A stretch of DNA of 58,167 nucleotides from Candidatus Omnitrophota bacterium (GTDB taxonomy: Bacteria; Omnitrophota; Gorgyraeia; Gygaellales; Profunditerraquicolaceae), in contig JAKQWZ010000024.1 in NCBI GenBank assembly GCA_029561735.1, forward strand, positions 1 to 58,167, read 5' to 3'. The translations under genes and the position numbers were made by a program. Below, piece by piece: positions 44,677 to 55,100 of this stretch (within the stretch, counting starts at the first letter, position 1; every line of letters starts with the position of its first letter). The notes beneath the pieces are model-generated. The model saw nothing but the letters and a program-made list of their open reading frames with translations. It was not told the DNA's origin and ran no database searches.

Positions 44677-45053
44677 GGCCGGGAATAATTTTTATTATCA
44701 GCCTGATCGTGCTTGAAAATATATTTGATACTCTAAGAGAGCTTATCCTAAAAACAGCGATCAACAACCTAAAAATCGAACGTTATACAATAAAAAATAT
44801 CATCGCCTTTATACTCAAGCTTATTTCAAACCCGTGGATATACCTGGCGCTTTTATTTAGCACCCTTTCTCTTTTTCTCTGGCTATTCATACTTTCAAGG
44901 ATAGATCTCAGCCTTGCCTTTTCCCTTGACAGCATGCATTATATTTTTATTGCTTTTGCTTCCGGTTTGTTTTTAAAAGAAAAACTGGGGGCCTTGCGCT
45001 GGTTGGGGACCATTTCTATAGTAATAGGTATAGTATTAGTTGCGTTTAGTTAA
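44673..45053 (+). CDS. Second EamA/SMR-type (ArnE/F-like) small transporter
   Basis: ATG at 44673 (ATGA overlap, GGAGG SD); RIDLSLAF...FLKEKLGALRWLG motif. Confidence 0.82.
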   Translation: MRPGIIFIISLIVLENIFDTLRELILKTAINNLKIERYTIKNIIAFILKLISNPWIYLALLFSTLSLFLWLFILSRIDLSLAFSLDSMHYIFIAFASGLFLKEKLGALRWLGTISIVIGIVLVAFS

Positions 45054-46544
45054 TAACCCTAAGGCTTTTTCTGCCGCATCTAATCCTGAAACAAAACAAG
45101 CATGCACTCCGCCGCCGGGCTGGGTCCATGCCCCGGCTAAAAATAAACCCTTAACACATGTATCCTGGCTCAAGCGGTTGATTCCTGACTGGGCGACTGT
45201 CTGGGCAAATCCGTAAATAGCCCCTTGCGGCGAAAGGGTATAACGCTGCATGGTTATAGGCGTGGCTACCTCGGTTACTTCAATGTTTGCCCAAAGCCCG
45301 GGCAGAAATTTCTCCGCCCTCTGAATAAGTATTTTTGCCGCTTCTGATTTTTTCCGGGCATATTCCTGCGGATCTAATCCCTGCCAATTAGCAAATGAAT
45401 CCAACGCCATTATTAAAAGAGTGCCTTTGCCTTCAGGTGCCTGCGCGGGATCTAACTGAGAATGGTCAACAATGGCTATTGAGCAATTTTTATAATCACC
45501 TTTTTGGCTATAAGAGAAATTTTTATCATGGTCATAGCCGGAATTAACCGAAAACATAAACTGATCCATGCCCAGTTGTTTAGCCGGTTTACTTAAGCCC
45601 AGATAAACCTGCGTAGCAGAGATGGATTTTTCCAAAGCCTCAAGCTCAGGCCTAACCCTGACTTTAACGGCTTGGTCATCTATCAGGCAGTCAAAAGTGT
45701 TTAACCCGGAGGCATTTGAAATCACAGTCTTAGCTAAAAATTCTTCAGCCTTTTCAGTAACTACCCCCTTAACATTCTTGCCTCTAAAAGTAATAATCTT
45801 TTCCACGGTAGTATTAAATCTGACTTCAGAGCCGTTAGCGCGGATATCGCTGACCATAGCATCAAACAGCCGGGACATCCCGCCTTTTATATAAGCAGTC
45901 CGGTTATTATAATAGCCGTTAAAGATAATGAAAAAATACAGCGCTGATAGCCTGCGCGGGCCCAGCCCGGCAAATTTCCAGATATCGGTTATTATTCCGT
46001 ATAGTTTGTCGTTTCTTATATATTTTCTTATATAGTTTTCAGCTGTACAAAAGCAAAATTTTACCACCAAAGGAGAGATAAGCGGGGACAACAGCAGTTT
46101 AAGCCAGTAAGGAGCGGGAAACCGGGTAAACCTCCGCATCTGCCTTGAAAAATCCCGGACACGGCTGAATAAAGAATCAATGCCTTTTGCCTCTTGGGGA
46201 AAAAATTTCTTTAAGGCAGCTGAATAATCGTCAAGGTTAAAATTTGCCACAAAATCATGCTCGGGATATATCAGGCGGGAAAAATCTTTTAACTGTACAA
46301 AATCAACCTTCTTATCCAGCCCGTATTCATGAAGCAGGCGCATTAATTCTTCATCGCCGTAAAGAGCGTCTACGCAATGCACAGAAGATTCAAACATAAA
46401 ACCTTTCCGGCGAAATGTTGTAGCGTAACCTCCGGCAACAGGCTGCCTTTCTATCAAAAGGACTTTCCTGCCTTCGCAGCTAAGCTTATATGCCGCGGCT
46501 AACCCGGCAACTCCGGCGCCTATGATTATAGAATCATATTCCAT
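45036..46544 (-). CDS. Phytoene desaturase (CrtI)-like FAD oxidoreductase
   Basis: IIIGAGVAGL Rossmann motif, GGYATTF, TPITMQRY, GAIYG and GAWTQPGGGV. Confidence 0.85.
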   Translation of the reverse strand: MEYDSIIIGAGVAGLAAAYKLSCEGRKVLLIERQPVAGGYATTFRRKGFMFESSVHCVDALYGDEELMRLLHEYGLDKKVDFVQLKDFSRLIYPEHDFVANFNLDDYSAALKKFFPQEAKGIDSLFSRVRDFSRQMRRFTRFPAPYWLKLLLSPLISPLVVKFCFCTAENYIRKYIRNDKLYGIITDIWKFAGLGPRRLSALYFFIIFNGYYNNRTAYIKGGMSRLFDAMVSDIRANGSEVRFNTTVEKIITFRGKNVKGVVTEKAEEFLAKTVISNASGLNTFDCLIDDQAVKVRVRPELEALEKSISATQVYLGLSKPAKQLGMDQFMFSVNSGYDHDKNFSYSQKGDYKNCSIAIVDHSQLDPAQAPEGKGTLLIMALDSFANWQGLDPQEYARKKSEAAKILIQRAEKFLPGLWANIEVTEVATPITMQRYTLSPQGAIYGFAQTVAQSGINRLSQDTCVKGLFLAGAWTQPGGGVHACFVSGLDAAEKALGLLTKRN

Positions 46545-46551
46545 AAATATT

Positions 46552-47388
46552 TTAATGGCTGTTCAGGAAATCAATTATCTCTTTGGCAACCCTGTCTTTA
46601 TCAAGGTCAATAGTAACCATATGGTAGCTGTTGGTTAATTCAATCAGCGCTTTATCTTTTGAACCGATATGGCTGTATACATATTTTGCGTTTTTAATGC
46701 TAGTCATATCGTCTTCTTTGGCGTGAATAATGAGGATGGGGCAATTTATCCGGGGCAATTCATTCTTAACCTGCCTGGCTAGAATATGGTGCTGATAAAG
46801 GCAGGCCAGGGGGAAAAACGGGCTGCCGAACAGCAGGACCTTATTGTCAAATTTTTTAGCCAGAGCGCCTTTATAAAACCTTTCAATCTGAGAACGCAAA
46901 GACTCGTCTTTAAGCCCGTACGGCCAGCCTTCGCGGATATCAATCATATTACGCAGGACAGGTATATGCCAGACCAGGTCCATTAAGGCCTTGCCCTTAT
47001 GCAATGCCCAGCCGTCATAAAACAAAGTCGGCGCTAAAGCTATTAAGCCGCTTATCCGCTGCGGGTATTTATAAGCCAAATGCATGGACATAACCGCTCC
47101 CATGGATAAGCCTCCGGCAAAGACCTTGCGATAATCGTTATTCAGCCTTATTAAATCGTTTTCGCAGGCAGCGGCAATTTCCTGCCAAGTCACTTTCTTA
47201 AGCTCGCCTAAAGTACTGCAGTGCCGCGGCAGGGTATTGCACATTACACTAAATCCGGCCTTATTCAGCGCTTTTGCCTGATAACGCATCTCCGAAGGCG
47301 TTCCGGTGATGCCGTGGATCAAAAGCACTGCCTTGTCACTATTGCCTTTGAGGAAAAAATTGAATTTATTTGCTGGATTATCTTCCAT
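46552..47388 (-). CDS. Alpha/beta-hydrolase (esterase/thioesterase)
   Basis: HGITG oxyanion motif, GLSMG nucleophile elbow, EDDM Asp and SYHM His. Confidence 0.88.
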   Translation of the reverse strand: MEDNPANKFNFFLKGNSDKAVLLIHGITGTPSEMRYQAKALNKAGFSVMCNTLPRHCSTLGELKKVTWQEIAAACENDLIRLNNDYRKVFAGGLSMGAVMSMHLAYKYPQRISGLIALAPTLFYDGWALHKGKALMDLVWHIPVLRNMIDIREGWPYGLKDESLRSQIERFYKGALAKKFDNKVLLFGSPFFPLACLYQHHILARQVKNELPRINCPILIIHAKEDDMTSIKNAKYVYSHIGSKDKALIELTNSYHMVTIDLDKDRVAKEIIDFLNSH

Positions 47389-47434
47389 AATGGTTTTTAA
47401 TTATAGCACAAAACATGCTTAAATAAACTTTTTA

Positions 47435-47462
47435 TTGTCCTGACATATTTTTTTGCTATACT
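47435..47462 (+). promoter_or_regulatory. Promoter TTGTCC-N16-TATACT with TG extension, 6 nt before the GNAT ATG
   Basis: ttgtcc tgacatatttttttgc tatact acacct ATG; no SD. Confidence 0.5.
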
Positions 47463-47468
47463 ACACCT

Positions 47469-48665
47469 ATGCATTTAACAGCCAACCAGCTTAGCGTATC
47501 GCTGATAAGCTCCGCCCGGGGCATCCCCCAACAGGATTGGGATCGCTTATTCGGCGCTAATTGCCTTGACAGCCGCGATTACCATATCGCGCTTGAAGAC
47601 GCAAAAATGCCCGAATTTGAACTGAGGTACCTTACTGTCAGCCGCAACAGTTCTTTAATAGCGGTTTTTCCGTTTTTCATCATGGATTTCTCCTTTACTA
47701 CTATAATACAGGGGAAGATACAAAAAATTATCTTTGCATTACAAAAAATATTTAAAAATTTTCTTAAAATAAAACTGCTTTTTATAGGCTTCCCTACCAC
47801 AGAAGAGCTCTGTATAGGCATAGACAAAACCGAGGATTACAACATGCTATCAGAGCTGGCGCTGGATAAATTCATGCAGTTCATCAAAGAGAAAAAAATC
47901 AATAACCTGCTTTATTACAATGTAACCGCCAACCAGTCCGGATTGGCCGCCTTGCTGGATAAAAAAGGTTTTGTGCGCATGGAAAATTTTCCCAATGCCC
48001 GGTTAAAAATACGCTCTGATTCCCTGGAAGGCTTTATTCAAGGCCTGAGTAAAAATATGCGCAAGAGCCTTAAAAAGAAATTAAGGTTGTCCCACGAGGC
48101 AGGTGACCTGAAAATTGAAGTGGCCGAAGACATAAACGGGGCGTATCCTGATATCTACAGGCTCTATATGAATAATTTTAATAATTCAAACGTGCGCCTG
48201 GAAACGCTCACCCCTGAATTTTTTCAAAACATCTGCAGGAATATGCCGGGAAAAGCCAAAATAATCCTGACCCGCCATAACACTAAATTGGTGGCTTTTA
48301 ACCTGTGCATCCTTAATGATGATACCTTTATTGATAAGGTGATAGGGTTTGACGATGAAGCGAGCCGCAGGTTTAATCTTTATTACACTACATTCTGCTA
48401 TAACCTGGAGTGGTGCATAAAAAACGGTTACCGCAATTACCAGCTGGGCATAATTGATTACCACCCTAAAATCCGGCTGGGCGCAGAACTGATACCGCTA
48501 TATATCTATTTTAAATCAACAAAGCCCTTGATGAATTTTCTGGCAAAAAAACTTGCCCGGTTCATTGAGCCTAAGAATTTTGACCCCACCCTAAAGCTCC
48601 TTGCCCGTAAATCTGCCCAAAACAAGGCAGGCATTGTTCCCTCCGAAAGCCGAAGCGCTGTTTAA
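47469..48665 (+). CDS. FemAB-like / GNAT-family acyl- or aminoacyl-transferase
   Basis: IPQQDWD, LRYL..., LSKNMRKSLKKKL and YQLG...YHPKIRLGAEL pattern; 398 aa. Confidence 0.72.
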   Translation: MHLTANQLSVSLISSARGIPQQDWDRLFGANCLDSRDYHIALEDAKMPEFELRYLTVSRNSSLIAVFPFFIMDFSFTTIIQGKIQKIIFALQKIFKNFLKIKLLFIGFPTTEELCIGIDKTEDYNMLSELALDKFMQFIKEKKINNLLYYNVTANQSGLAALLDKKGFVRMENFPNARLKIRSDSLEGFIQGLSKNMRKSLKKKLRLSHEAGDLKIEVAEDINGAYPDIYRLYMNNFNNSNVRLETLTPEFFQNICRNMPGKAKIILTRHNTKLVAFNLCILNDDTFIDKVIGFDDEASRRFNLYYTTFCYNLEWCIKNGYRNYQLGIIDYHPKIRLGAELIPLYIYFKSTKPLMNFLAKKLARFIEPKNFDPTLKLLARKSAQNKAGIVPSESRSAV

Positions 48666-49820
48666 AGCAATATCCACCTGTTTTTTGCGGGCTTGATTAG
48701 GCACGCAATCTATATCAATCTGCGGATCAGGAGTTTCAAAATTTATTGTAGGAGGAATAATGCCTTCTTGAATAGCCATACAGCAGGCTATTGTCTCTAA
48801 TGCCGAAGCTGCGCCCATAGTATGCCCCAGCATTGACTTGATTGAACTAACGGCGATTTTCTTATAATTATCTCCGAAGATGTTTTTTATGGCCTGCCCT
48901 TCCTCCCTGTCATTTGCCGGAGTGCCTGTGCCGTGCGCATTAAAATAATCCACCTCTTGAGCAGATACTCCGCTGTGCTTAAGCGCATTGCTAATGGAGC
49001 GCGCAATGCCATCGGCCTGCGGAGCAGTCATATGGTGCGCGTCGCAACTTATTCCGTAACCAAAAAGCTCGGCATAGATATGCGCCTTTCTTTTCAATGC
49101 ATTTTCAAGGGCCTCCATAATTATTATGCCTGCGCCTTCAGCCACCATCATGCCTTTTCTGTTTTTATCAAACGGCTGGCATTTTTCAGGCGCAACTGCA
49201 AACATCCGGTTAAATCCGATAAAGGCTATCCGGGAAAAAGCATCAGATCCTCCCACCAGCATCATATCTGCTTGGCCTGAGCTTATCAGGTCGCTTGCAT
49301 AACCAGCGGCAAAATTTGCCGCTGCGCAGGCATTAGGAATAGTCAGATTAGGCCCTTTGAGGTTATATTCTATAGCTAAATTGGCGGATAAAACATTGCA
49401 CGGATAACGGCAGATAAGCAGCGGATCCACGGCATCAGCGCCTTTGCGTATCCAGGCGTCATTGAGGACTTCAAGCACCTGCGATTCTCCCATTGTCGTG
49501 CCAAGGCAAACCCCGGTTTTCTGTTCATCCAAATCAGAAAGCTTTAATCCGGCGTCAACAAGGGCTAGTTTTGCCGCACTGAGAGTAAATTGCGAAGCGC
49601 GCCCGAGCATTGCGGATTTTCTCCGGCTCATAAATCTTAAAGGGTCAAAATTCTTAATCTCCCCGCCTTTATGAGTTGGGAATGCGCTGGTATCCAAAGA
49701 TTCAATCCTGCTGATCCCGGACTTCCCCCGGATAAGCGCATTCCAGAAATCATCCTTTCCGATGCCTATAGAAGTGACTGCGCCTAAACCGGTGATAACT
49801 ATGCGTTTTTTATTTTGCAT
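48591..49820 (-). CDS. fabF: Beta-ketoacyl-ACP synthase II (active KS)
   Basis: RIVITGLG; catalytic Cys in NACAAAN; His in AHGTGT; His in KSMLGH. ATG at 49820. Confidence 0.9.
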   Translation of the reverse strand: MQNKKRIVITGLGAVTSIGIGKDDFWNALIRGKSGISRIESLDTSAFPTHKGGEIKNFDPLRFMSRRKSAMLGRASQFTLSAAKLALVDAGLKLSDLDEQKTGVCLGTTMGESQVLEVLNDAWIRKGADAVDPLLICRYPCNVLSANLAIEYNLKGPNLTIPNACAAANFAAGYASDLISSGQADMMLVGGSDAFSRIAFIGFNRMFAVAPEKCQPFDKNRKGMMVAEGAGIIIMEALENALKRKAHIYAELFGYGISCDAHHMTAPQADGIARSISNALKHSGVSAQEVDYFNAHGTGTPANDREEGQAIKNIFGDNYKKIAVSSIKSMLGHTMGAASALETIACCMAIQEGIIPPTINFETPDPQIDIDCVPNQARKKQVDIALNSASAFGGNNACLVLGRFTGKEL

Positions 49821-50250
49821 CTTCTTTGGCCACAAAGCTCAATTCGCCGGAAGCGACTTCTGTATCAGCGACAAAGGCTTGGGCTTTGACGATTGCGGCA
49901 TTAGAGAGGATCTTCAGGGGTTCAATAACCAGCTTTAGCTGGTCGCCGGGCGTGACCGGCCGGGAAAACCTCACTTTAACTGCGCCTAAATAATAAATCA
50001 TGTCCTTTTCTTTAAGAGAAACCTTGCTTTCGTAAAAAAGGATTATAGAAGCCTGGGCCATGGCTTCTATAATTAACACGCCGGGCATAACAGGCCTGCC
50101 CGGAAAATGGCCTCCGAAAAATTCCTCATTAAAACTGATATTCTTTATAGCGACTACCCTTTTCTTCGGCTCAAGCTCTAAGATGCGGTCAATCATTACA
50201 AAAGGAAAACGCTGCGGAAGTATTTTGAATATTTCCTCAATATTAAGCAT
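49810..50250 (-). CDS. fabZ: 3-hydroxyacyl-ACP dehydratase
   Basis: LPQRFPFVMIDR, GHFPGRPVMPGVLIIEAMAQ motifs. Confidence 0.9.
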   Translation of the reverse strand: MLNIEEIFKILPQRFPFVMIDRILELEPKKRVVAIKNISFNEEFFGGHFPGRPVMPGVLIIEAMAQASIILFYESKVSLKEKDMIYYLGAVKVRFSRPVTPGDQLKLVIEPLKILSNAAIVKAQAFVADTEVASGELSFVAKEDAK

Positions 50251-50497
50251 GGTTGTCCTTTTTAGCCAGATTTTCTTTTACTACGGCCAAGGTATCATTT
50301 AAAGTCTTAAATTCCGCAAGCTTCTCTTCGGGAATAGATATCTTATACTTTTTCTCTATAGCAGCCAGGATTTCCAGCGCCATCATAGAATCCATGCCTA
50401 AGTCCTCCACAAACCTGGAATCCGGCTTAATCTCATCCGGAGTTTTCTCCACTATCTGCGCTACTAAATCCCTTATTTGCGTATCAATATCCTGCAT
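50243..50497 (-). CDS. acpP: Acyl carrier protein
   Basis: DLGMDSM phosphopantetheine motif; acidic; 84 aa. Confidence 0.92.
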   Translation of the reverse strand: MQDIDTQIRDLVAQIVEKTPDEIKPDSRFVEDLGMDSMMALEILAAIEKKYKISIPEEKLAEFKTLNDTLAVVKENLAKKDNHA

Positions 50498-50524
50498 CTG
50501 TTTCCTCCTTAATTAGCGCCGCTG

Positions 50525-51274
50525 TTATATTTTTATGGATAAACCGCCGTCAACCACTATGACCTGCCCGGTTATAAAACCGGCTGAATCGCTAAGCAAG
50601 AATCTTACTGCCTGCGCCACCTCAATTGCCTTGCCAAACCTGCTTAAAGGTATATTGGCAAGCATTGCTTCTTTATATTCCGGCTTTAAAGCGCTGACCA
50701 TATCAGTATCAATAAAACCCGGGGCCACGGCATTTACCCGGATATTATAAGCAGCTGTTTCCCGGGCCAGCGAACGCGTAAAGCCGATTATCCCGGCCTT
50801 TGATGAAGCGTAATTAACCTGCCGGCTCAAGCCGGTCATGCCGCTGACTGAAGTAATATTGACTATCCGGCCGCTTTTCTGTTTTAAAAAAGTAACTATT
50901 GCCTGCCGAGAAACATTAAACGTCCCGGTCAAATTAGTGTTTATGACATCGCCCCAGTCCTCTTTAGTCATAAACATCAGGGCTTTATCACGGGTAATGC
51001 CGGCATTATTAACTAAAATGTCAAGCCTGCCAAAAGCCTCTTTAGTCTTTTCAATTAAGGCCTTGGCCTGCTCAAAATCCGATGAGTCAATCTTTAAAGC
51101 CAGGGCCTTTGCGCCTTTATTGGTTATCTGAAGGGATAATTCCCGTGCCAGGGCCTCGTTGTTTAAATAAGTAAAAACCACAGCCGCCCCTTCATCAGCC
51201 AGCATCAAAGCTATTTCTTTGCCTATGCCTCTTGAGGCGCCTGTGACTATGGCTACTTTATCTTTAAAAATCAT
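50525..51274 (-). CDS. fabG: 3-oxoacyl-ACP reductase
   Basis: TGASRGIG, NNAG and YASSK motifs. Likely ATG at 51274. Confidence 0.9.
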   Translation of the reverse strand: MIFKDKVAIVTGASRGIGKEIALMLADEGAAVVFTYLNNEALARELSLQITNKGAKALALKIDSSDFEQAKALIEKTKEAFGRLDILVNNAGITRDKALMFMTKEDWGDVINTNLTGTFNVSRQAIVTFLKQKSGRIVNITSVSGMTGLSRQVNYASSKAGIIGFTRSLARETAAYNIRVNAVAPGFIDTDMVSALKPEYKEAMLANIPLSRFGKAIEVAQAVRFLLSDSAGFITGQVIVVDGGLSIKI

Positions 51275-51278
51275 ATTT

Positions 51279-52520
51279 TCATCCTGCGAATTTTGAAATG
51301 ACCATTGCCGCATTATTGCCGTCCGGCCCAAAGGAATTTATAAGGACATTCTCCAGCTTTATTTGGCGCGGATTGCTCGGCACATAATCCAGCACGCAAT
51401 CCGGGTCTTTTTCCCGGTAGTTGATTGTTGCCGGGACCAACTGGTTCTCCAGCGCCGCTACTGCGGCTGCTGCCTGCATTGAAGCCGAAGCGCTTAGGCA
51501 TTCTCCCAGCATTGACTTAACCGCGCTAACCGGTTTTTTTTCTGCCTGCGCTGCAAAAACTTCCCGTATAGCGTCTGTTTCTATTTTGTCCGCATCAGGG
51601 CTTGAATTGGCCGAAGCCAGAATACAATCTATTTTTTCAACAGGCAGCCCAGCATTGCTTATAGCGCCGCGCATGGATTTTTTTAGCCCTTCTGCAGAGG
51701 CTTTATATTTATTTATCCTGTAAGGGGTAAAAGATACGCCTATGCCGGTAATCTCAGCTAAAATCCTTGCCTTGCGCGCCATGGCTGATTCCAGCCTCTC
51801 CAAGACCATCAGGCAGCACGCCTCTGCTAAAATAATTCCGTTTCGCCTTTTATCAAACGGACAGGAAATTTCCTCTGCCTGTGCCTTTATCCCGGCTAAA
51901 TATTTTGTCCGGTAAAGGCCCAAGAAAGTCTGCTCGGATAACTCCTCAACTCCGCCCGCCAATACAGCCCGGGCCCTGTTATTTTTCAGGTATTCGCAGG
52001 CATATGCAAATGCCTCAAGGCTGCTGGTAAATCCGGAGGAAATAGTGGCATTAAAACCTTTAATATTAAACCTGATAGAAACCTGGCTGGCCGGAGAATT
52101 AATTACTGTATTCGGAAAAAGCGCAGGATTGACATACTGCACGCCTTCTCTGATGGCTTCAGCATCAAAATCACTCATGCTCTTAATACTGCCAAGGGTT
52201 GAACCAATTGCTACCCCGATATCAACGCAATTTTCTTCAGTTATACTTAAAGCTGCGTCATCCAAAGCCATCTTTGCCGCGCAACTAGCTAATTTGGTGC
52301 TGCGGTCCATATTCCGCAGGCCTTTAGGCCCTAGAATATCCTGAGGGGAAAAACCGGATATTTCTCCTGCCAGTTTGGATTTATACCCTGAAGTATCAAA
52401 AAGAGTAATCGGCTTTATTCCGGATATTGATGCGCACATTGCCCTGCCAAAAGCATCTTTACCTGTTGCATTAGGGCAGATTACACCCATACCCGTAATA
52501 ACTATTCGCGTGTCTTTCAT
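51279..52520 (-). CDS. Catalytically inactive ketosynthase homolog (chain-length-factor-like)
   Basis: Full-length KS fold, but the triad positions read SGFTSS (Cys to Phe), ASANSS (His to Ser) and KSMLGE (His to Glu). Confidence 0.85.
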   Translation of the reverse strand: MKDTRIVITGMGVICPNATGKDAFGRAMCASISGIKPITLFDTSGYKSKLAGEISGFSPQDILGPKGLRNMDRSTKLASCAAKMALDDAALSITEENCVDIGVAIGSTLGSIKSMSDFDAEAIREGVQYVNPALFPNTVINSPASQVSIRFNIKGFNATISSGFTSSLEAFAYACEYLKNNRARAVLAGGVEELSEQTFLGLYRTKYLAGIKAQAEEISCPFDKRRNGIILAEACCLMVLERLESAMARKARILAEITGIGVSFTPYRINKYKASAEGLKKSMRGAISNAGLPVEKIDCILASANSSPDADKIETDAIREVFAAQAEKKPVSAVKSMLGECLSASASMQAAAAVAALENQLVPATINYREKDPDCVLDYVPSNPRQIKLENVLINSFGPDGNNAAMVISKFAG

Positions 52521-52559
52521 AATATTGAGTAATTATTATATTACCAATAAGGCTGCTTC

Positions 52560-53492
52560 TCAAGCAGATTCTAGGGCTTTAAGGATGGCAATATTTGTCG
52601 CCTGATTAATAGAGTTTATCTGTTGCGGCGATTTATTTTTCGCGTTATAGCCAGTTGGATGGTCAAGCCGGGATATAAGCGATTTAAAAATACTGCTGAA
52701 ACCCGGTTGCGAATATTCTCCTGTTATATCCAAGCCTACTATATCCAAATGGCCCCTGATTTGGCCCAACAATAACAATAACATGCTTAAGGGCATACGC
52801 CCTTCTTCCCAATTCGTGCAAGCCGCATCAGCGCTTAAACAGTCCTTATCTATGCTCACATAAGTTTTTCTGGCCTCAAGCCGCGGCAACAATTGAGGAA
52901 TAAGATTATCCGGGTTAATATTTTTCAGCTGATTCCAGTTTATAACGGTTGAAAATAATTTTTTTGTTAACCTGACTGACACATTGGGGGCAAGCCTGCG
53001 CAAAAAAACACGGGTCGGCTCATGTTCATAAGGATAAATTTCAATCCTGTTATCTTTAAGCCCGGATAAATTTGCGCTTTTGATAGCCGGCCAGGAAATA
53101 TCCTGTGAAGAAATACCCAATAATATTATTTTTTTAATATTCGGCTGTTCCAGCGCCCGGCTGACCCATGAACCACAGCCGAATTTCGGAGGCAGGATAT
53201 CCCAATCCGGATGGTGGTCAAATACGATCAGATTTAACGGTTCCTTAAATTGCTCCAAAAGCAGGCTGGTAACATTATGGTAATCTCCGGAACCAAGAAA
53301 TGTAACGGCATTTTTCAACTCCGGGCCTAATGCAGAGCTTATTGCTTGGCACGTTTTTCTATTCATCCACATCCGTGCATCTGAAGAAAACCGGGTCAGA
53401 TCAACTATGTGCGCAGAGTAACCGGATACAAGCTGTTCTTGCAGCAATAGGCTGTTATCAAAATTAAGTATCCGGGGGGTTTTTGAAAGCAT
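52560..53492 (-). CDS. Arginase/ureohydrolase-fold metalloenzyme
   Basis: GSGDYH, FDHHPD (DxHxD) and SIDKD (DxD) metal ligands. Confidence 0.8.
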   Translation of the reverse strand: MLSKTPRILNFDNSLLLQEQLVSGYSAHIVDLTRFSSDARMWMNRKTCQAISSALGPELKNAVTFLGSGDYHNVTSLLLEQFKEPLNLIVFDHHPDWDILPPKFGCGSWVSRALEQPNIKKIILLGISSQDISWPAIKSANLSGLKDNRIEIYPYEHEPTRVFLRRLAPNVSVRLTKKLFSTVINWNQLKNINPDNLIPQLLPRLEARKTYVSIDKDCLSADAACTNWEEGRMPLSMLLLLLGQIRGHLDIVGLDITGEYSQPGFSSIFKSLISRLDHPTGYNAKNKSPQQINSINQATNIAILKALESA

Positions 53493-53553
53493 TAAGGCGA
53501 GTTTTAATCCGTTTATGCTTACTGCTTAAATTAACCGGCTTTTGCCTGTGTTC

Positions 53554-54228
53554 TTACGCCAGCTTCCTCAAATAGCCCAACACATCGGCAAATCCGTTAA
53601 AAGCAATACAAAATCTTTTCTTTCTTTTAAGGAATTTCAGCAGGTATCCTTTTGCGAAAACTATACCGGCTTCCTGCGCCGGGCATACATCCGAGTGGCC
53701 GTCGCCGACATACATTAAGATTTTATCGCGGAACTCCTGTTTTTTCAATTGATTCTTCTTGCAGTGGCCGCATTTACCGCATTTATTATTGGAATACGGG
53801 AAAGACGGTATCACCTTAGAGCCGCTGAATTTAAGGGTATTGGCAAAGATCCTGACTCCCTTGATCCCGTTAGATTTTAATATGCGCCTGATGATAAATG
53901 AAAAACTATCACTTAAAATAACCGGGGTTATGCCTTTTTGTTTTAGAAATAAGACCAATTTATCAAAATCAGGCAAGAGCCTCACTGTGGATAGATACTC
54001 ATCCAGCTGCTGGGTAGAAATCCTGACTTTAGACAACTGCCTTTTCAGGCATTCTTTAGAGCCTATTTTTCCGGATTTCCAAAGCCTCTCGGTTTTCTCC
54101 CAATCCCTGCTAATTGAAAATCTTCTGATCAACCCGTCAAGGACATCAAACGTAGTGATAGTATTATCAAAATCAAAAAATATGCGGCTATCTGAAATCT
54201 TATGCAATCTTAAGGGCGGCTGCTTCAT
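53554..54228 (-). CDS. MtnX-like HAD-IB phosphatase
   Basis: FDFDNTIT motif I, SD motif II, CxxCGxCK cap and GDGHSD motif IV. Confidence 0.85.
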   Translation of the reverse strand: MKQPPLRLHKISDSRIFFDFDNTITTFDVLDGLIRRFSISRDWEKTERLWKSGKIGSKECLKRQLSKVRISTQQLDEYLSTVRLLPDFDKLVLFLKQKGITPVILSDSFSFIIRRILKSNGIKGVRIFANTLKFSGSKVIPSFPYSNNKCGKCGHCKKNQLKKQEFRDKILMYVGDGHSDVCPAQEAGIVFAKGYLLKFLKRKKRFCIAFNGFADVLGYLRKLA

Positions 54229-54330: not shown

Positions 54331-54825
54331 CTACCATCTTAACAATGCGACCTTATACCCATCCTGCTGCGGTTTGTCTACCTTATATTCCGGCTTAACA
54401 GACGGCTCATCATAAGGAGATACCGGAAAAGTTGCCACATCAACTACTCCGGCTACACCCCGGGTGAAGCCTGAAGCTATTCCCTGGCCAAGGCCATACG
54501 TAATACCCCAAAACACGTTGTCCTGCTCAGAGACATCGGCTACATCCCGCGGTATATCGGTCCATGAAGTTACCGTATTAAGCACCCCGTCGCCTAATTT
54601 TTCTGCAGGGGTATTTGCCATAGAATCTTCTTTCACAGGATTTCCATTGATCGCCTTCAGGAAATCCGAATTGCCAAGGGCTTTATCCTGCTGTTTCCAT
54701 CCCGGCATATAATAGGTATTAAAGCCTGCCGCTGCCATTGCCTCAGGTTGCGCCCAGGCGCTAATATCTTTTAAGAACAAAACCGTTGCTGCCGCTATAC
54801 ACAAAATCAATAATGCCTTCTTCAT
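54331..54825 (-). CDS. Secreted/membrane protein with a TIGR04073 (exosortase-associated)-like domain
   Basis: Signal peptide; KLGDGVLN..TSW.DIP...G..YG.GQG...G..RG.AG..DVATFP glycine-zipper pattern; AGGGGG SD. Confidence 0.65.
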   Translation of the reverse strand: MKKALLILCIAAATVLFLKDISAWAQPEAMAAAGFNTYYMPGWKQQDKALGNSDFLKAINGNPVKEDSMANTPAEKLGDGVLNTVTSWTDIPRDVADVSEQDNVFWGITYGLGQGIASGFTRGVAGVVDVATFPVSPYDEPSVKPEYKVDKPQQDGYKVALLRW

Positions 54826-55021: not shown

Positions 55022-55100
55022 CTTTTGGCAGCCAGGCTGCCCTTTACAGGGCCCTTGGCTTTGCGTCCCAAGATTGCTCTTGGTTTGCCGTTTCAACAGT
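55022..55100 (-). ncRNA. Cyclic di-GMP-I (GEMM-I) riboswitch aptamer
   Basis: Minus strand GGCAAAC-CAAGA-GCAA-TCTTG-GGACGCAAAG-CCA-AGG-GCCCT-GTAA-AGGGC-AGCC-TGGCTGCC. It has the GGCAAAC and GACGCAAAG consensus blocks, a GNRA-capped P2 and a paired P3. Confidence 0.88.

Follow-up and report, generated by a model that had tools for sequence, protein, structure and literature searches.

We analyzed a gene cassette at positions 45036-52520 of contig JAKQWZ010000024.1 (contig C63 of assembly GCA_029561735.1) from a Candidatus Omnitrophota bacterium, the whole 58,167-nt contig being referred to below as the window. The cassette combines a ketosynthase (KS) that retains its catalytic triad, a full-length KS that has lost it (dead KS), a dedicated acyl carrier protein (ACP), the dehydratase FabZ, the reductase FabG, a CrtI-like oxidoreductase and an alpha/beta hydrolase. 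The results presented here make it reasonably likely that the cassette is the Omnitrophota version of the fatty acid synthase (FAS)-like core of Cluster I (kuste3603-3607), the proposed ladderane gene cluster of anammox bacteria, and that it constitutes a separate, self-priming module in which the KS and its chain-length factor (CLF)-like partner make a short- or medium-chain, possibly unsaturated, product. A first-pass annotation of this DNA had pointed to a likeness to the anammox ladderane cluster. The likeness proved stronger than supposed, the KS, dead KS, ACP and FabZ all being specific relatives of the anammox proteins that carry their signature residues. On sequence comparison, the resemblance to the anammox genes is one of homology, not analogy, and the Cluster I enzyme set, as traced through these homologs, is not exclusive to ladderane producers. 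The set probably builds a short, dedicated acyl chain.

A ketosynthase pair related to the anammox heterodimer

The active KS (48591-49835, minus strand; 414 aa, with its true start probably at ATG 49820) and the dead KS (51279-52520, minus strand; 413 aa, with the N- and C-terminal Pfam ketoacyl-synt domains) were aligned to the FabF proteins of B. subtilis (4ls5) and E. coli. The alignment bore out the contrast between an intact and a replaced triad that had been read from the sequence at first pass, with the active KS retaining Cys170/His301/His338 and the dead KS carrying Phe/Ser/Glu. Both proteins miss the NCBIfam fabF cut-off of 493.75, scoring 441 (KS) and 343 (dead KS).

Among solved structures, the best relatives of the two proteins are the two chains of the crystallized Brocadia heterodimer 9s5h: chain B for the active KS (9s5h_B; 8e-148, 54% identity), followed by the ishigamide KS Iga11 (6kxd_A, 2e-107), and chain C for the dead KS (9s5h_C; 1e-116, 47% identity), followed by a FabF (3e-71). 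Since residue numbers rebuilt from both chains of 9s5h reproduce the Cys165, His298, His335, Phe394, Phe135 and Val139 of a 2026 preprint (bioRxiv 10.64898/2026.05.19.726425), we identify this entry as the Brocadia fulgida amxFabF2/amxFabFmut heterodimer reported there, in the one published study that our literature search matched to it. The same preprint describes amxFabF2 and amxFabFmut as an obligate heterodimer that decarboxylates malonyl-ACP, forms acetoacetyl-ACP and prefers C6/C8 over C16 chains, and reports that Phe135 and Val139 line the tunnel in the crystal and that their mutation shifted chain-length preference. The window dead KS is identical to amxFabFmut at the tunnel residues Phe135, Thr138 and Val139, the first being invariant and the last nearly invariant in alignment A1, while the active KS keeps Ala164, Phe203, Met337 and the gate residue Phe394 of amxFabF2.

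The first-pass annotation had called for a KS/CLF phylogeny, and this was answered in part by a tree of 92 sequences, with support given as SH-aLRT (Shimodaira-Hasegawa-like approximate likelihood ratio test) only, in which both window synthases fall in clades with the anammox pair. The dead KSs of Omnitrophota, anammox bacteria and one Acidobacteria metagenome-assembled genome (MAG) form a single clade (SH-aLRT 100), within which the anammox group is sister to the Omnitrophota group. Their active partner KSs, anammox FabF2 included, likewise form one clade (95), where anammox FabF2 and the Acidobacteria sequence adjoin the window-type Omnitrophota KSs (91). Canonical FabFs lie outside both clades, and the host's own FabF, encoded on contig C17, groups with E. 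coli FabF. The Acidobacteria locus (L146, 6636-12800) has the order ACP-KS-dead KS-FabG-PDH, its genes being of the same family (PDH denoting the phytoene dehydrogenase-like flavoenzyme), and its KS is sister to the anammox FabF2 clade.

The loss of the triad is general: it is absent in 88 of 88 Omnitrophota dead KSs, whose three positions are for the most part occupied by Phe, by a varying residue and by Glu or Asp, in that order, and Cys-His-His is kept in 41 of 41 adjacent partner KSs. Because this pattern is uniform across homologs and the gene order recurs in 11 related loci, the pairing of KS and dead KS is more than a chance association.

A dedicated carrier protein, dehydratase and reductase

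Between the two synthases lie genes for FabG (50525-51331), the ACP (50243-50497) and FabZ (49810-50250), all on the minus strand. The ACP, of 84 aa with a DSM phosphopantetheine site and the Pfam PP-binding domain, has the anammox amxACP entries 7auf, 7qv0_D and 9s5i_E as its best solved relatives. With the Brocadia cluster ACP it shares 44% identity, and it is the only match of that protein in the genome; its score falls below the NCBIfam acyl_carrier cut-off (59.8 versus 70.45).

FabZ, recognized by its FabA-like Pfam domain, has as its four best solved relatives 7qv0_A, 8ayb, 8ayi and 8ayc (up to 5e-42). These bear the depositors' name of the amxFabZ entries and are taken here to be amxFabZ structures, 7qv0_A being chain A of a FabZ-ACP complex. 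The amxFabZ protein is active on amxACP and not on canonical ACP. Its signature, defined as Ile69 and a hydrophobic residue at position 115 (PMC10139942), is reproduced in the window protein, which has Ile at position 69, where canonical FabZ has a tunnel Gly, and Leu at position 115, where canonical FabZ has Arg or Lys. The same Ile is found in 39 of 39 anammox cluster FabZs, and the other FabZ of the host genome keeps the canonical tunnel Gly.

FabG (Pfam adh_short_C2, 1e-68) probably starts at ATG 51274, 5 nt past the dead-KS stop. This 3-oxoacyl-ACP reductase passes TIGR01830 (311.7 bits; cut-off 297.75), is 47% identical to E. coli FabG and occupies the same position in most related loci. 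Together with FabZ it scores above the respective NCBIfam equivalog cut-off, whereas the KS, the dead KS and the ACP remain below theirs.

Gene-by-gene correspondence with Cluster I

We annotated the cluster of Brocadia pituitae as ACP-FabZ-FabF2-FabFmut-PDH-B12 radical-SAM (SAM, S-adenosylmethionine), an order that matches the published kuste3603-3608 layout (PMC4790861). For each of proteins 1 to 5 of this cluster, the best match in the host genome is the corresponding window gene, as reciprocal best hits. The B12 radical-SAM protein (kuste3608) has no ortholog in the genome, where its best match is 26% identical, whereas the anammox copies are at least 71% identical to the B. pituitae protein and are present in every anammox locus that extends far enough. 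The absence of radical-SAM genes noted at first pass holds for the window, where no large open reading frame (ORF) contains a radical-SAM Pfam domain, and an ortholog of the anammox gene is lacking from the genome at hand as well.

Radical-SAM genes of this kind do occur elsewhere in the class, at L163 (G012:C9) 365-2727, L094 13421-14530 and L013 16231-17343. Some genomes have B12 radical-SAM genes 35-41% identical to the kuste3608 ortholog, partly in tandem arrays. One class B12 radical-SAM gene adjoins a homolog of the window protein with tandem GCN5-related N-acetyltransferase (GNAT) domains described below. At L094, dead KS-ACP-FabZ-KS is followed immediately by a radical-SAM gene with 30% identity to its anammox counterpart, an anammox-like layout without FabG.

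The CrtI-like FAD oxidoreductase (45036-46544, minus strand; Pfam Amino_oxidase) is 29% identical to the Brocadia PDH (E 1e-49) and scores under the NCBIfam crtI_fam cut-off (182 versus 238). It belongs to a PDH clade (SH-aLRT 100) that also contains the anammox PDH, other Omnitrophota cluster PDHs and Bacillus plasmid oxidoreductases, and a long branch parts it from the genuine CrtI of Pantoea and Roseobacter. By this placement the window enzyme is no true phytoene desaturase, and for kuste3607 no CrtI activity was observed in vivo (PMC4790861). The likeness to the Cluster I PDH drawn in the first-pass annotation holds at the level of this clade, which is found beside acyl-carrier systems, and not below it, the window enzyme lying outside the anammox subclade. 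The closest plasmid relatives, at L160 (Pseudalkalibacillus) and L161 (B. cereus), sit inside clusters of ACP, beta-ketoacyl-ACP synthase III (KAS III), FabZ or nonribosomal peptide synthetase (NRPS) genes, and the clade seems generally tied to acyl chains bound to carrier proteins.

The remaining enzyme of the cassette is an alpha/beta serine hydrolase (46552-47388, minus strand; Pfam Hydrolase_4) with a GLSMG nucleophile elbow, whose best solved relatives are a Bacillus monoacylglycerol lipase, LipS and Est30 and which is a candidate thioesterase or acyltransferase for chain release. The genes listed at first pass (KS, dead KS, ACP, FabZ, FabG, CrtI-like enzyme and esterase) were thus all recovered, in the ORF list and by Pfam, at the positions given here. 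Missing from that list was a 398-aa FemAB-like tandem GNAT between the KS and the hydrolase (47469-48665, plus strand; Pfam Acetyltransf_6 and FemAB_like), convergent to the former and divergent from the latter. No sequence match to the GNAT was found among solved structures. The best matches of its AlphaFold model (pLDDT, predicted local distance difference test, 68) are FemX, Sbb17, the MprF C-domain and VipF, all with low TM-scores of 0.3-0.45. The gene occurs in seven related loci, including 5 of the 11 complete loci of the window's architecture, and is an optional insert in the cassette; in relatives without it, the gap between KS and hydrolase is -2 to 51 nt.

Distribution and architecture of the cassette in the Omnitrophota

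A scan of species-representative genomes with a pattern derived from the dead-KS alignment returned 372 loci, the best 80 of which are almost all from Omnitrophota. Clear dead-KS orthologs, defined by at least 46% identity and more than 340 bits, were identified in 30 of 200 evenly sampled Omnitrophota genomes (~15%). All 30 genomes belong to the window's class, and within the window's family 4 of 17 sampled genomes are among them, a patchy distribution that marks the cassette as an accessory trait. The loci nearest to that of the window are all from MAGs of Omnitrophota or from MAGs grouping with them under the label 'uncultured Planctomycetales'.

The loci fall into three architectures. Type A, that of the window, has the order dead KS-FabG-ACP-FabZ-KS-(GNAT)-hydrolase-PDH and was found at 11 loci. 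Type C consists of the five-gene core with an anammox-like PDH or none, and it is with these type C enzymes that the anammox PDH groups; the complete genome of Ca. Velamenicoccus archaeovorus LiM (L044) contains the five-gene core only. Type B is reduced to dead KS-FabG-FabZ and lies among housekeeping genes in Ca. Aceula. At L091 9992-12426 (Ca. Aceula meridiana) and about 29 other loci, type B has no adjacent ACP or partner KS. Loci of the L091 type are embedded among riboflavin genes, nusB and ligA, and their FabZ tunnel position is often Cys, not Ile.

G193 and G157, two genomes of the window's family, have the type-A cassette immediately 5' of, and co-oriented with, plsX-fabH-fabD-fabG-acpP-fabF, and the adjacency of cassette and fab operon is found again at L014, L047 and L065. 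Given this position in sister genomes, the product is most likely destined for a membrane lipid and not a diffusible metabolite.

Housekeeping fatty acid synthesis in the host genome

The host assembly comprises 1.23 Mb in 95 contigs, with 44% G+C and an estimated completeness of 82%, and the host is a member of the Omnitrophota class that holds Velamenicoccus (Velamenicoccia). Its housekeeping genes for fatty acid synthesis are encoded elsewhere, with plsX-fabH on contig C87, fabD-fabG-acpP-fabF on C17 (AcpP 73% and FabF 51% identical to their E. coli counterparts) and one canonical FabZ divided between the ends of contigs C51 and C66. The cassette is therefore a dedicated system, as the first-pass annotation had proposed, and not the sole fab locus of the genome.

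No FabI, FabK or FabV was recognized in the host genome. Of ten class genomes checked, seven gave this result (G000, G149, which is Velamenicoccus, G193, G199, G155, G143 and G103) and carry otherwise complete fab operons, FabV being present only in G091 and FabK-like proteins only in G157 and G119. Either the class has an unrecognized enoyl reductase or its fatty acid pathway is incomplete. We considered whether the CrtI-like enzyme stands in for the missing enoyl reductase and rejected this idea, since the presence of the flavoenzyme does not track the absence of FabI/FabK/FabV and Velamenicoccus has neither.

The genome also encodes a second KS pair, in an aromatic-type type II polyketide synthase (PKS) cluster on contig C45 (L027, 127-7536), which is unusual for a 1.2 Mb Omnitrophota genome. 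The best solved relative of its KS-alpha is the actinorhodin KS (5e-114), and the match of its KS-beta to the actinorhodin CLF (7e-74) ranks below those to several FabFs. Also encoded there are an ACP, a PF04199 cyclase, an SRPBCC polyketide cyclase, a short-chain dehydrogenase/reductase, a major facilitator superfamily transporter and a B12-binding radical-SAM protein. Being actinorhodin-like, and with a B12 radical-SAM protein only 24% identical to the anammox one, this pair was rejected as a part of the cassette system.

Proposed function and alternative explanations

Going by published work on the anammox proteins, the KS and dead KS of the cassette would form an obligate heterodimer that primes itself, decarboxylating malonyl-ACP and generating acetoacetyl-ACP with the dedicated ACP as carrier. 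Chain processing by the FabG of the cluster and the Ile69-type FabZ would occur only on this ACP, apart from the housekeeping AcpP, and the narrowed tunnels (Phe135/Val139 in the dead subunit and Ile69 in FabZ) would favor short or medium chains of about C6-C8. The long chain envisaged at first pass is thus not what the conserved tunnel residues and FabZ Ile69 point to, which by homology is a short or medium chain in this range. As the cassette encodes no enoyl reductase, the chain would stay unsaturated, or else the CrtI-like flavoenzyme would set its redox state. The hydrolase, translationally coupled to the KS in relatives, would release or transfer the product.

Several observations weigh against this interpretation. 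The activities attributed to the Omnitrophota proteins would follow from sequence comparison and from published work on the anammox proteins, for which in vitro experiments never showed elongation past acetoacetyl-ACP and crosslinking served as a proxy for chain preference (bioRxiv 10.64898/2026.05.19.726425). In the tunnel of the window KS, Ala110 is replaced by Met and a neighboring Ile by Ser, so that chain length may differ. The window PDH is placed outside the kuste3607 subclade, and kuste3607 is itself without an assigned activity. The window cassette adjoins Arn-like envelope genes and not the fab operon. Finally, at 82% completeness of the MAG, the absence of the radical-SAM gene and of an enoyl reductase is provisional.

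The position of the cassette upstream of the fab operon in relatives (G193, G157, L014, L047 and L065) would also suit an accessory arm of membrane fatty acid synthesis, either making anaerobic unsaturated or modified acids in the manner of FabA/FabB or FabN/FabO, or supplying a primer to the housekeeping FabF. The three-gene dead KS-FabG-FabZ form among housekeeping genes in Ca. Aceula is consistent with such a role, as is the atypical pathway of a class in which no FabI, FabK or FabV was recognized in the host and six of nine relatives. We nonetheless consider it unlikely, given that a spread of 30 in 200 genomes, and 4 of 17 in the family, is unlike that of an essential route, that the dedicated ACP and the change at FabZ position 115 imply separation from AcpP, and that no isomerase activity has been reported for amxFabZ. 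The aryl-polyene frame adopted at first pass leads to another possibility, a highly reducing type II PKS with a conjugated polyene pigment or lipid of the aryl-polyene, flexirubin or ishigamide kind as its product, the flavoenzyme extending conjugation. The combination of a KS/CLF pair with discrete ketoreductase (KR) and dehydratase (DH) and no enoyl reductase (ER) fits this description, the flexirubin reductase model FlxB gives FabG 257.6 bits (below its cut-off of 340), and Iga11 (6kxd_A), the second-best solved relative of the KS, is the closest structural homolog of amxFabF2 according to the anammox authors (bioRxiv 10.64898/2026.05.19.726425). By Pfam, however, the window has no ammonia lyase, aryl-starter ligase, LolA-like/MMPL export genes or ApeH-type thioesterase, the top 60 solved relatives of the dead KS do not include Iga12, the closest being FabF-like proteins and amxFabFmut, and the narrowed FabZ and KS/CLF tunnels speak against long polyenes. 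The frame survives as an analogy, with Iga11 just a second-best relative and no aryl-polyene accessory genes in the window, and a polyene product appears quite unlikely.

The flanks of the cassette raise a further possibility, an acyl-donor arm of an envelope-modification block of about 15 kb, which together with Arn-like genes and the GNAT would make an N-acylated or aminoacylated amino-sugar lipid. An ArnT-like glycosyltransferase, a carbohydrate esterase family 4 (CE4) deacetylase, a DegT aminotransferase and an EamA pair are adjacent in the window, the order HAD-arginase-like-cassette-EamA-EamA-DegT (HAD, haloacid dehalogenase) is repeated at L074 and L080, and the GNAT model resembles the aminoacyl-tRNA-dependent transferases FemX and MprF. 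Recurrence of the Arn-like neighbors is confined to L074 and L080, which are near-identical to each other and amount to roughly one observation, whereas the fab operon, not Arn-like genes, follows the cassette in the other type-A loci with a PDH-downstream flank and in two same-family genomes. With the GNAT present in only 5 of 11 complete type-A loci and its fold matches at low TM-scores, we regard this explanation as very unlikely. Synthesis of ladderane or ladderane-like cyclobutane lipids by the organism itself is extremely improbable. The organism has five of the six Cluster I gene families, but the B12 radical-SAM ortholog, invariant in far-reaching anammox loci, is the one lacking, with a best match of 26% against at least 71% among anammox bacteria, and anammox bacteria are the only organisms in which ladderanes have been detected (PMC10139942). 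We retain, as the most likely interpretation, a self-priming KS/CLF module homologous to the core of Cluster I.

Sequences flanking the cassette

A sigma-70-like promoter match (TTGAGA-17-TATAAT, 11/12 positions; 52535-52563, minus strand) was identified by consensus scan just upstream of the dead-KS start and is suggestive of a functional promoter 5' of the dead KS. Directly upstream of the dead KS are also encoded an arginase-fold protein, recognized by a weak Pfam match, and an HAD-IB phosphatase of the MtnX-like kind (52560-54228, minus strand). The same arginase-fold and HAD pairing is present at L031, L074 and L080, and the HAD protein alone at L032.

Further upstream, a c-di-GMP-I-GGC riboswitch (55023-55098, minus strand) scores 66.9 bits against a gathering score of 59, with a strong promoter match upstream of it and a terminator at 55017-54995. 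The riboswitch stands before a 164-aa ORF without a Pfam family (54331-54825) that ends at a strong terminator (54303-54274). As this small ORF and the strong terminator intervene between riboswitch and cassette, the riboswitch was rejected as a regulator of the latter.

Significance for ladderane biosynthesis and Omnitrophota lipids

Cluster I has been described as conserved among ladderane producers and restricted to them (PMC10139942 and the 2026 Barends preprint). Ladderane calls by antiSMASH are, according to the literature, common in unrelated taxa, and such calls for Omnitrophota MAGs have been published without being analyzed (PMC9902471). The cluster is not mentioned in the main Omnitrophota genomics paper, and our literature search returned no account of the signature-bearing orthologs, of variants among them or of an association with the fab operon.

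The biosynthesis of ladderanes has yet to be solved. A broader evolutionary reading, which we advance only tentatively, is that KS/CLF-ACP-FabZ(Ile69) represents an older self-priming short-chain synthase common to the Omnitrophota (Velamenicoccia) and anammox bacteria, with a relative in the Acidobacteria, and that the ladderane pathway arose in anammox bacteria by the addition of the B12 radical-SAM enzyme, the Omnitrophota cassettes being natural versions free of it. If this is true, the lipid of the Omnitrophota would reveal the product of the module, namely the linear C6-C8 or unsaturated ladderane precursor, and these bacteria would carry an undescribed membrane lipid. Independently of this reading, the radical-SAM-free versions narrow the chemistry specific to ladderanes to the radical-SAM step and offer simpler comparison systems for the KS/CLF product, for instance in the enrichment-cultured Ca. 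Velamenicoccus archaeovorus. They also give a concrete reading to the unexplained antiSMASH ladderane calls in Omnitrophota MAGs (PMC9902471).

Comparison with known systems

Among known systems, anammox Cluster I shares with the window cassette the local order ACP-FabZ-KS and a CrtI-like flavoenzyme of the same broad clade. It differs in having the radical-SAM gene, whereas the window adds FabG, the alpha/beta hydrolase and the GNAT, and in the place of the dead KS, which follows the KS in Cluster I and heads the operon in the window. The triad of the dead subunit is replaced by Val/Asn/Glu in Cluster I and by Phe/Ser/Glu in the window, and the two flavoenzymes belong to different subclades. 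The hosts are also distinct, the Omnitrophota lacking anammox metabolism and known ladderanes.

Highly reducing type II PKSs (Iga11/Iga12, ApeO/ApeC) share the KS/CLF logic and the use of discrete KR, DH and ACP without an ER, but in searches of solved structures the window dead KS is not a CLF of the Iga12 or ApeC type. The tailoring and export genes of aryl-polyene systems are, moreover, absent from the window, where the tunnel signatures suggest short chains. Canonical FAS II (FabF, FabG, FabZ and AcpP) has the same folds and chemistry as the window cassette, which departs from it in that one of its two KSs is dead and in that its genome holds a separate canonical set.

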